From sequence record OM386655.1: a DNA stretch of 64,000 nucleotides, one strand, 5' to 3'. Numbering within the stretch: position 1 is the first letter of the stretch; every line of letters starts with the position of its first letter. The notes under the pieces are model-generated. The model made no database searches. It was given only the letters and a program-made list of their open reading frames with translations, and was not told the origin of the DNA. Shown piece by piece: positions 31,523 to 32,887 of the stretch. The position numbers and the translations under genes are program-made. The stretch comes from Escherichia phage vB_EcoM_ESCO10.

Positions 31523-32887
31523 ATGACACAAACTACAGGTGAAAAAGAAGGTGTATTTTACGGTTATTCTCTTTATGATTTGAATAAAGAAAAACTAATA
31601 ACTTTTGATGAATTACTTACGGGTATTCGAGGAGAGCCTGGAGAAAATGGCGATATTGGACCAAAAGGTGACCAAGGTCCTGTGGGACCCCAAGGTATTC
31701 AAGGGGAAACAGGGGCCCAAGGTATTCAGGGTATTCAAGGTCTAAAAGGTGATAAGGGTGACCAAGGTATTCAAGGACTAAAAGGAGATAAAGGCGACCA
31801 AGGTATTCAAGGAGTTCCTGGAACTCAGGGTCCACAGGGTATTCAAGGTCTAAAAGGTGATAAGGGTGACCAAGGTATTCAAGGGGAAACAGGGGCCCAA
31901 GGTATTCAGGGTATTCAAGGAGTTCCAGGTGCCAAAGGAGATATAGGCCCAGTCGGTCCGGCAGGTTTAACATGGAAAGGTTCTTGGAATATTGCAACTG
32001 CTTACGCAGTTAACGAAGCCGTTGGACACGATGGAAGCCTATATTTCGCCACAGCTGAAAGCACCGGACAAACTCCTTCATTAGGTAGCGATTACTGGGA
32101 AGTCTTAGCAACGGAAGGGCCTGAAGGTCGGCAGGGTGTCATGGGTCCGCAAGGACCACAAGGTATTCAAGGACCACAAGGTATTCAAGGTCCTAAAGGT
32201 GATACAGGCGAAACTGGACTACAAGGTCTTAAAGGCGACAAAGGAGAGACAGGTTTAACCGGGCCACAAGGACTACAAGGACCTAAAGGTGATACTGGTG
32301 AAACCGGTCCACAAGGACTACAAGGGCCTAAAGGTGATACGGGTGACAAAGGAGAGACAGGTTTAACCGGACCACAAGGTATTCGTGGTATTCAAGGTAT
32401 TGCTGGAGTCCAAGGACCTAAAGGTGATAAGGGTGACAAAGGAGATACAGGTGCCACTGGTCCAGCCTACGAGTATAAAAAAGTATCTAGATTTGGAATG
32501 CCTGCCGCGGGTATATCAATTTCTACTCCTTTATTCAATTCAGGATTAACAATAAATGTGGTAGGCGTCAAAACTGATACATTTAGATTTACCCTTACTA
32601 ATACAGGTTCAGAGTCTAGAACTATTGATGGTGAACTAATTTATTTTGACCCGGATGGTGCAATAAAAAGATTTGTTGTTAATTTTTCAATAGCTGCAGG
32701 TGCGACAACCAATTTCGGTTCGTACACGTATGCAATTACAACTCCCAGAGTTTTTACTTTAAATTTTAATGCTACTGGGACTATACAACACGCCCACGAA
32801 GTAAAATATTTTGTAATAGGACGCTCTAGTTATACGGAAAATACTTCTGCTGGTGCTACTGTTACTATTGAAAAACTCTATAACTAA
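31523..32887 (+). CDS. collagen-like (Gly-X-Y repeat) protein with non-collagen spacer and C-terminal globular domain
   Basis: 454 aa; two runs of ~37 uninterrupted G-X-Y triplets ([16 protein letters not shown]... and [13 protein letters not shown]...); spacer W-x4-Y...G..Y.A...P...YW; GGGGAT SD. Confidence 0.8.
31691..31920 (+). repeat. direct DNA repeats encoding collagen triplets (identical 50-mer at 31691-31740 and 31871-31920)
   Basis: Identical string caaggtattcaaggggaaacaggggcccaaggtattcagggtattcaagg seen twice 180 bp apart. Confidence 0.8.

Follow-up and report, generated by a model that had tools for sequence, protein, structure and literature searches.

The nearest published analogue of a collagen–bead–collagen fibre is EPclB, encoded by prophages of enterohaemorrhagic Escherichia coli (EHEC), in which two collagen domains are split by the domain Pf2 and which appears in rotary-shadowing electron microscopy (EM) as three globules and two stalks (PMC3368898). 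In the short tail fibre protein gp33 of cyanophage A-1(L), the 'joint' domain (Leu111–Gln215) binds the periphery of the baseplate wedges and cell binding lies in the stem-CBD region (PMC10966104). In the thylakoid-anchored contractile injection system (CIS) of Anabaena, the tail-fibre-like trimer Cis13/All3316 is contacted by the C-terminal extension of the baseplate protein Cis11 (PMC8894136). Among chitinases, the chitin-binding tryptophan of ChiA1 is W687, with H681, T682, P689 and P693 as further putative binding residues (as summarised in PMC2265269). The present analysis concerns a collagen-like fibre gene of Escherichia phage vB_EcoM_ESCO10 (sequence record OM386655.1), located in a stretch of 64,000 nucleotides (nt) that is referred to as the window. 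Profile and model comparisons assign the interruption between the two collagen blocks of its product to the CBM5/12 superfamily of carbohydrate-binding modules (CBM). The module probably does not bind glycans in the canonical way and most probably acts as a structural bead in the fibre shaft.

Layout of the collagen-like fibre protein

The gene and the segments of its product are located as follows.

31523–32887, + strand: collagen-like fibre gene, an open reading frame (ORF) of 454 amino acids (aa) plus stop codon
31523–31621, + strand: N-terminal non-collagen segment, residues 1–33, proposed virion-anchor peptide
31622–31972, + strand: collagen block 1, G34–T150, 39 Gly-X-Y triplets (regular expression on the translation)
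31964–32116, + strand: module including the conserved G-L-x lead-in
31973–32116, + strand: non-collagen interruption W151–E198, 48 residues, CBM5/12-fold β-sandwich, probable bead
32117–32467, + strand: collagen block 2, G199–A315, 39 Gly-X-Y triplets (regular expression on the translation)
32468–32884, + strand: C-terminal globular domain Y316–N454, 139 residues, predicted all-β sandwich, proposed distal specificity-determining tip

The protein matches the Pfam family Collagen (PF01391) in four stretches (E 8.8e-39, 131.5 bits against a cutoff of 27.2) and phrog_5073, 'tail fiber protein' (E 7e-107). The Gly-X-Y register breaks at W151 and restarts at G199. A first-pass annotation, made from the letters of the sequence, had described a spacer between two Gly-X-Y blocks, and 39 triplets are indeed present on each side of the 48-residue interruption. 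The 46-letter spacer peptide that it quoted is exact (T150–L195, nt 31970–32107), and the interval that it gave, 31967–32125 (L149–E201), brackets the whole interruption, with the trivial offset of beginning one codon early and reaching two triplets into block 2.

Both blocks contain tandem repeats at the DNA level; their periods are 36, 72 and 108 nt in block 1 and 18, 45 and 90 nt in block 2. Tandem duplications at 31727–31926 and 32171–32452 mark the collagen blocks as built from recent DNA copies, and an antisense ORF at 31617–31997 is a by-product of the repetitive GGN-rich codons. In the orthologues of the T4-like coliphages vB_EcoM-VR5 and VR7, block 1 counts 39 triplets in VR5, as in the window, and 50 in VR7, while block 2, with 39 in the window, counts 32 in both. 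Because orthologues differ in triplet number, fibre length is evolutionarily plastic; the window copy happens to be symmetric, with 39 + 39 triplets.

Assignment of the interruption to the CBM5/12 fold

The first-pass annotation had seen a CBM5/12-type pattern in the spacing of the aromatic residues and had named a search with the Pfam CBM_5_12 hidden Markov model (HMM) as the check. This search gave a near-full-length match for the window module alone (profile positions 2–43 of the 44 of PF02839, E about 0.004–0.005), which at 17.4–17.7 bits stays below the gathering threshold of 26.2 bits and therefore below formal membership of PF02839. No other non-collagen Pfam family matches the fibre protein, and Phage_fiber_2 (Pf2, PF03406), PfN and PfC, considered as candidates, gave no Pfam match even at E≤10. 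A phmmer search of the PDB sequences with the single spacer reached only E about 2, its weak matches already being CBM12 domains of Vibrio chitin-oligosaccharide deacetylase (COD).

At the family level the match is much stronger. An alignment termed A1 was assembled from 45 sister modules of the closest collagen-like homologues and the window copy; 32 of its 46 sequences individually match PF02839 at E<0.01, the best at 1.6e-7. Against the PDB, the A1 profile retrieved the chitin-binding domain of Bacillus circulans ChiA1 (1ED7) over the full 45-residue domain with E 7.5e-8, together with the CBM of 4ILV (2e-6), the CBM12 of Vibrio COD, Moritella Chi60 and Serratia ChiB. The same profile found two fibre proteins, A-1(L) gp33 (E 9e-4) and Cis13 (E 4e-3). 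Alignment of A1 with 1ED7 by hhalign yielded a probability of 96.4% and E 1.1e-9.

An AlphaFold2 model computed with A1 has a predicted local distance difference test (pLDDT) score of 93.8 and strands at residues 150–154, 165–169, 172–176 and 192–197. The top 30 PDB matches of this model in Foldseek are all of the CBM5/12 fold and come from chitinases, deacetylases or the same module in fibres. They include A-1(L) gp33 with a template modelling (TM) score of 0.84 and 1.6 Å over 53 columns, Anabaena Cis13 (TM 0.73), the CBM12 of Vibrio COD (1.0 Å over 44 columns), the chitin-binding domain (ChBD) of S. griseus ChiC, Chi60 and ChiB. The best superpositions have root-mean-square deviations (RMSD) of 1.0–1.6 Å, with a Foldseek probability of 1.00 for the best of them. 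The match list is homogeneous; its E-values are modest (0.004–0.02) because the domain is tiny. Weaker matches were the F2-pyocin fibre and fibres of the Agrobacterium phages 7-7-1 and Milano.

Judged by these profile and model comparisons, the spacer is a CBM5/12-superfamily domain by true homology, chance being excluded, and the aromatic pattern recognised in the first-pass annotation is borne out. The interruption W151–E198 would form an independently folding β-sandwich domain of about 45–50 residues. A Pfam match below threshold can thus be confirmed at the level of the family, and an unannotated 48-residue stretch receives a domain assignment in a protein for which RefSeq gives no more than the label 'tail fiber protein'.

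Conserved aromatic residues and the canonical binding site

Residue conservation was assessed over 1,054 modules from the 149 best representatives of the family, aligned to the A1 profile with 1ED7. The window module carries the W-Y-V-G-Y-P-W pattern as W155, Y161, V167, G171, Y174, P185 and W192, in columns that are 85–100% conserved. The first-pass annotation had staked its CBM5/12 reading on an HMM match and on conserved aromatics in homologues, and both were found, the core positions being 99–100% conserved in the 1,054 modules. The aromatics W155, Y161, Y174 and W192, together with H169 in a Tyr-rich column, are 80–100% conserved and align with ChiA1 W656, Y662, Y675, W696 and Y670. These are kept in enzyme CBMs too, and we take them to belong to the core of the ChiA1 structure. 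From this and from their conservation we read the conserved aromatics of the module as fold-defining core residues.

At the position of ChiA1 W687 the window has Gln183; only 8% of the 1,054 modules carry an aromatic residue in this column, where N, S or Q is usual. The W687-type motif is kept in the three enzyme CBM12s compared (GWEP, GWEP and DWAP). The two columns that follow Y-x-A, in which we presume the exposed aromatic pair of CBM5 to lie, are Ala178 and Glu179 in the window and are aromatic in 4% and 1% of the modules. Surface aromatic binding residues of the CBM5/12 type are therefore not found in the window module. Because the surface tryptophan of the enzyme CBMs is absent, canonical binding is unlikely, and the alignment indicates that the module probably has no canonical chitin- or glycan-binding site. 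The glycan-binding function that the first-pass annotation had attached to the aromatics is not supported, as these align with the fold core and the equivalent of W687 is Gln183.

The fibre family has additions relative to the enzyme CBMs. The lead-in strand G-L-x-(W/F/Y)-x-G, aromatic in 91% of the modules (W151 in the window), has no counterpart in them, and a C-terminal L-L-A strand and a half-conserved aromatic before the last Trp (Y191) are also added.

Size and architecture of the module family

When 1.84 billion cluster representatives were searched exhaustively by phmmer with the 53-residue module, 2,915 proteins reached E≤1e-3 and 628 of them E≤1e-10; a single protein had up to 41 matched stretches. 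Collagen lies between the modules in 104 of the 149 best representatives, and the rest are direct head-to-tail strings with linkers of 0–10 residues. Gly-X-Y runs of at least three triplets occur on both sides of 425 of the 1,054 modules. Of the 120 collagen homologues nearest to the fibre protein, 64 have the module, mostly as a single copy; among them are all 11 that bear a precomputed PF02839 label. With tblastn it was found in 190 phage records, with hosts such as Flavobacterium, Escherichia, Streptomyces, Synechococcus, Rhizobium and Pelagibacter.

These searches indicate that the bead subfamily occurs in thousands of phage and contractile-injection-system fibre proteins. Collagen–bead–collagen is a common fibre design, undescribed in the literature searched; that search, which is weak evidence with most subscription-journal papers outside its scope, found no account of the fibre gene or of a collagen–CBM5/12–collagen architecture. 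At the upper end of the size range are giant metagenomic proteins, P0121 (4,341 aa, 44 modules) and P0132 and P0134 (about 2,050 aa, 33 modules each), which consist almost wholly of head-to-tail beads with linkers of 0–10 residues and little or no collagen. Such strings would form very long beaded fibres.

Conservation among orthologues and the C-terminal tip

The gene is 85% identical in nt sequence to that of VR5 and 83% to that of VR7, and over 57 residues around the spacer its protein sequence is 100% identical to that of both. Over the 153 nt of the module there is no difference from VR7 and there are two, both synonymous, from VR5. The N-terminal 33 residues are 90–97.5% identical in VR5, VR7, VR25, VR26 and KIT01, with one or two differences in 99 nt from VR7 and VR5, and can still be recognised in Kosakonia phage 305 and, among Vequintavirinae, in CR3 gp011 and A5-4_226. 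This segment may be the virion anchor.

Compared with VR5, the tip has 29 differences in 417 nt and 21 in 139 residues. One tip type is shared by the window, VR5 and VR7, a second is found in KIT01, and a third in VR25, JS10 and Kosakonia phage 305; the VR25/JS10 type also occurs in the rV5-like phage A5-4. In the alignments, anchor and shaft are conserved and the distal tip varies, which is the classical pattern. The tip is modelled as a 10-strand β-sandwich (pLDDT 79.8) with only generic immunoglobulin (Ig)-like matches, and is not C1q/TNF-like. Sequence comparison added a single further homologue of the tip. The C-terminal β-sandwich may be a trimerisation domain, its analogue being PfC of EPclA (PMC3368898).

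In the VR7 record (NC_014792.1) the orthologue is frameshifted close to its 3' end, as seen when positions 7214–7402 of that record are compared with window positions 32700–32887. The annotated 427-aa product of VR7 ends in 19 unrelated letters, and the conserved C-terminus goes on in another frame as a 62-aa ORF. The frameshift is either a sequencing error or a genuine truncation of the tip.

Proposed role of the module

With moderate confidence, the module is proposed to be a CBM5/12-derived structural bead, that is, a trimeric node that holds two collagen helices of ~33 nm each in register and forms a joint between them, with specificity residing in a swappable tip. The length is that of 117 residues at about 0.29 nm per residue of collagen helix. 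Three chains would associate into a trimer with, in order, the N-terminal anchor, ~33 nm of collagen, a node of three modules, a further ~33 nm of collagen and the variable β-sandwich tip. As a folded knot, the node would fix the register of the chains, let the two collagen helices fold independently, and supply a joint or a protein-docking point. Host or ligand specificity would more probably lie in the swappable C-terminal tip than in the node. Trimerisation, the mechanical and registering role of the node, the polarity of anchor and tip, and incorporation into the virion are what we infer in this scheme.

A structural role is supported by the sequence comparison, in which the module shows 0–2 nt differences from VR7 and VR5, all synonymous, while the tip is exchanged, and, by analogy, by the third, internal globule that EM reveals in EPclB (PMC3368898). 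The solved fibres point the same way. The gp33 module spans residues 139–181 and is therefore inside the joint domain and outside the cell-binding domain; the Cis13 module (residues 39–86) falls within the 100 residues of the chain that are modelled in 7b5h_AE. In both proteins the module is a protein–protein or architectural element. The canonical binding tryptophan is lost in a very large branch of the CBM5/12 fold, that of the fibre beads, which in solved fibres appears as a structural joint. This calls for caution, as 'CBM' in a phage fibre need not mean 'binds carbohydrate'. Host-range work would be better aimed at the tip than at the bead, and for phage engineering the conserved anchor–collagen–bead–collagen scaffold with its swappable tip would offer a compact chassis.

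Genomic locus and position on the virion

The features around the fibre gene are the following.

30039–31046, − strand: RNA ligase 2 (rnlB) homologue
31134–31373, − strand: divergent upstream gene, DUF2774 (Pfam E 2.5e-29), at a T4 gp24.2/24.3-like position
31493–31500, + strand: late-promoter-like motif AATAAATA, which differs at one position from the T4 late-promoter consensus TATAAATA and precedes the ATG by about 22 nt
31514–31519: GGGGGA ribosome-binding site, read from the sequence
32897–33715, + strand: 272-aa Hoc paralogue, starting 10 nt past the stop codon of the fibre gene
33718–33737, no strand assigned: GC-rich hairpin AAAGGGCC-TTGC-GGCCCTTT, on which the Hoc-like and hoc genes converge (terminator scan)
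33742–34857, − strand: hoc gene, 371 aa, tail-to-tail with the 272-aa paralogue

The gene order is gp24, rnlB, 24.2/24.3, collagen-like gene, 272-aa Hoc paralogue, hoc (opposite strand) and inh, and it is common to Dhakavirus, Gaprivervirus and Kanagawavirus. The rnlB homologue stands directly upstream of the locus as in T4, which confirms a T4-like head-cluster context. The 272-aa paralogue is annotated as 'Hoc-like head decoration' in VR7, VR5, VR25, JS10 and Kosakonia phage 305, contains the VQESRNG capsid-binding motif (described in PMC10385173) and is probably co-transcribed with the fibre gene. The two Hoc paralogues have a common C-terminal capsid-binding domain (YIHPL...YIW.GWWVMD...VQESRNG) and distinct N-terminal Ig-like parts, and presumably compete for the centres of the gp23 hexamers. 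Kosakonia phage 305 has kept only the short paralogue, beside the collagen gene.

The late-promoter-like motif, a consensus match, occurs at the same place in VR5, VR7 and VR25. The hairpin at 33718–33737 is, from its position, likely to be a bidirectional terminator; terminator-like sites in the region are no more frequent than in shuffled sequence. As consensus matches, the motif and the hairpin fit a late transcript of two genes.

The location of the gene in the head cluster beside two hoc paralogues, rather than among tail or baseplate genes, raises the question of where on the virion the fibre sits. The RefSeq label 'tail fiber' of the VR5 and VR7 orthologues is similarity-based and, given this location, unproven, and virion proteomics placing the fibre protein was not found in the literature searched. 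By synteny, which is indirect evidence, a head- or neck-attached fibre is a live possibility. The placement 'on the particle surface' made in the first-pass annotation is plausible for a fibre-like protein whose gene has a late-promoter-like motif upstream.

Vequintavirinae (CR3 gp011, A5-4_226) possess the same cassette of N-terminal anchor, collagen, module, collagen and tip.

6992–8362 of Cronobacter phage CR3 (L007): Vequintavirinae cassette
6977–8560 of Escherichia phage A5-4 (L008): Vequintavirinae cassette

There the cassette lies between the major-capsid/decoration genes and the neck/sheath genes, and not beside or downstream of the tape-measure gene. Its presence in both T4-like and rV5-like phages implies, at the level of sequence, that the whole fibre gene has been exchanged horizontally between unrelated myovirus lineages, Straboviridae and Vequintavirinae. 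A phmmer comparison of the Hoc paralogues and the 24.3-like protein with the neighbours of the fibre gene in CR3 and A5-4 found nothing significant, that is, no shared neighbour gene. Just upstream of the CR3 fibre gene, CR3 gp010 (L007 6637–6948, 103 aa) has a similar N-terminus, GVLTGYQIMD...KTISELFAG, followed by a short collagen run, and could be a second, minimal collagen-like protein with the same anchor.

Alternative interpretations

That the resemblance is accidental, the interruption being an unstructured or idiosyncratic linker that mimics the aromatic spacing of a CBM, draws on the failure of the module alone to reach the Pfam gathering threshold and on its E of about 2 against the PDB. 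The probability of this is negligible; it is refuted by the family search with its 2,915 homologous cluster representatives, by the A1 profile and hhalign with E-values of 1e-7 to 1e-9, and by the confident AlphaFold2 model, which Foldseek superposes at 1.0–1.6 Å on solved CBM5/12 domains, the core positions being 99–100% conserved. A more serious alternative, which we nonetheless consider unlikely, is that the module is a working carbohydrate-binding module, three copies per fibre giving avidity for lipopolysaccharide, capsule, chitin or mucin in a secondary, low-affinity attachment through the shaft. Homology and fold identity with CBM5/12 are consistent with it, phage fibres commonly bind glycans, and some CBMs bind without the canonical Trp. 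Further observations weigh against a purely structural bead, and the first two of them also favour this alternative. Among orthologues the module varies most in the loops that correspond to the binding face of ChiA1, which relaxed constraint would explain, as would diversifying selection on a non-canonical site; Pro185, equivalent to P689, is the sole conserved one among the putative ChiA1 binding residues; and W151 and Y191 are aromatics specific to the family. The structural proposal is weakened further in that the registering and jointing role of the node is drawn from analogy and the module could be almost identical in the window, VR5 and VR7 through recent recombination rather than through selection. 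The fibre gene also adjoins Hoc paralogues, and Hoc has been proposed to attach to bacterial and mammalian cell surface molecules (PMC10385173). Against a working binding site stand the Gln at the W687 position, in a column aromatic in so few modules and kept as Trp in the three enzyme CBM12s, and the columns of the presumed CBM5 pair, aromatic in only 1–4%. Moreover, the module is a protein–protein joint in the solved fibres A-1(L) gp33 and Cis13, and it is conserved while the tip is swapped.

The module might also be a docking site for another virion protein, such as the 272-aa Hoc paralogue or a neck or capsid protein, so that the fibre is held or folded back through its mid-shaft node. The gp33 module, in a joint domain that binds baseplate wedges, and the Cis13 module, in the modelled part of a trimer contacted by a baseplate extension, would fit such a role, as would the same-strand Hoc paralogue 10 nt downstream with its synteny kept in Dhakavirus, Gaprivervirus and Kanagawavirus. 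However, Vequintavirinae have the same fibre architecture, and the phmmer comparison revealed no Hoc-like or otherwise shared neighbour gene there; we regard docking as improbable. A further, speculative combination is given very little weight. In it, the protein would be no tail fibre but a ~70-nm accessory fibre of the head or neck, co-expressed with the 272-aa Hoc paralogue and passed as a cassette between enterobacterial phages of the T4-like and rV5-like groups, and its node would carry a non-canonical, Trp-independent glycan site in three copies per fibre. If true, this site would let virions adhere to mucus, to the matrix of biofilms or to polysaccharide on the host surface, and would be a collagen-based counterpart of Hoc adherence.

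Comparison with known systems

The CBM12 of ChiA1 (1ED7) and the related CBM5/12 modules of Vibrio COD, Chi60, ChiB and ChiC share with the window module the same small twisted β-sandwich (RMSD 1.0–1.3 Å over 44 columns) and, for ChiA1, the core pairs W155/W656, Y161/Y662, V167/V668, G171/G672, Y174/Y675, P185/P689 and W192/W696. Unlike the enzyme CBM5/12 domains, the window module has no surface Trp, and a strand is added at its N-terminus (G-L-x-W-x-G) and another at its C-terminus (L-L-A). It is placed between collagen helices in a presumably trimeric fibre, whereas the enzyme CBMs are appended to monomeric glycoside hydrolases. The best structural matches over the full 53-residue module, extra strands included, are A-1(L) gp33 (8KE9/8KEC) and Cis13/All3316 (7B5H), both of them trimeric fibre proteins. 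In gp33 and Cis13 the module is near the baseplate attachment and has no flanking collagen, whereas the window module is mid-shaft.

Fibres of the EPclB type follow the same plan: an N-terminal phage-fibre domain leads into two collagen segments with a small non-collagen repeat domain between them, and a globule forms the C-terminus. Their collagen length varies by three-residue units (Ghosh et al. 2012, PMC3368898). They differ in that the internal domain is Pf2 (PF03406), the ends are PfN and PfC, and a coiled coil is added. T4 Hoc and its paralogues occupy the same locus, and both they and the collagen-like protein are non-essential-looking surface fibres with variable distal domains. Unlike Hoc, however, the collagen-like protein lacks Ig domains, the ESRNG motif and the Hoc capsid-binding domain, and it is not a member of the Hoc family. 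Compared with these systems, the window module adds a domain assignment and a caution on the CBM label, and is no new kind of system.

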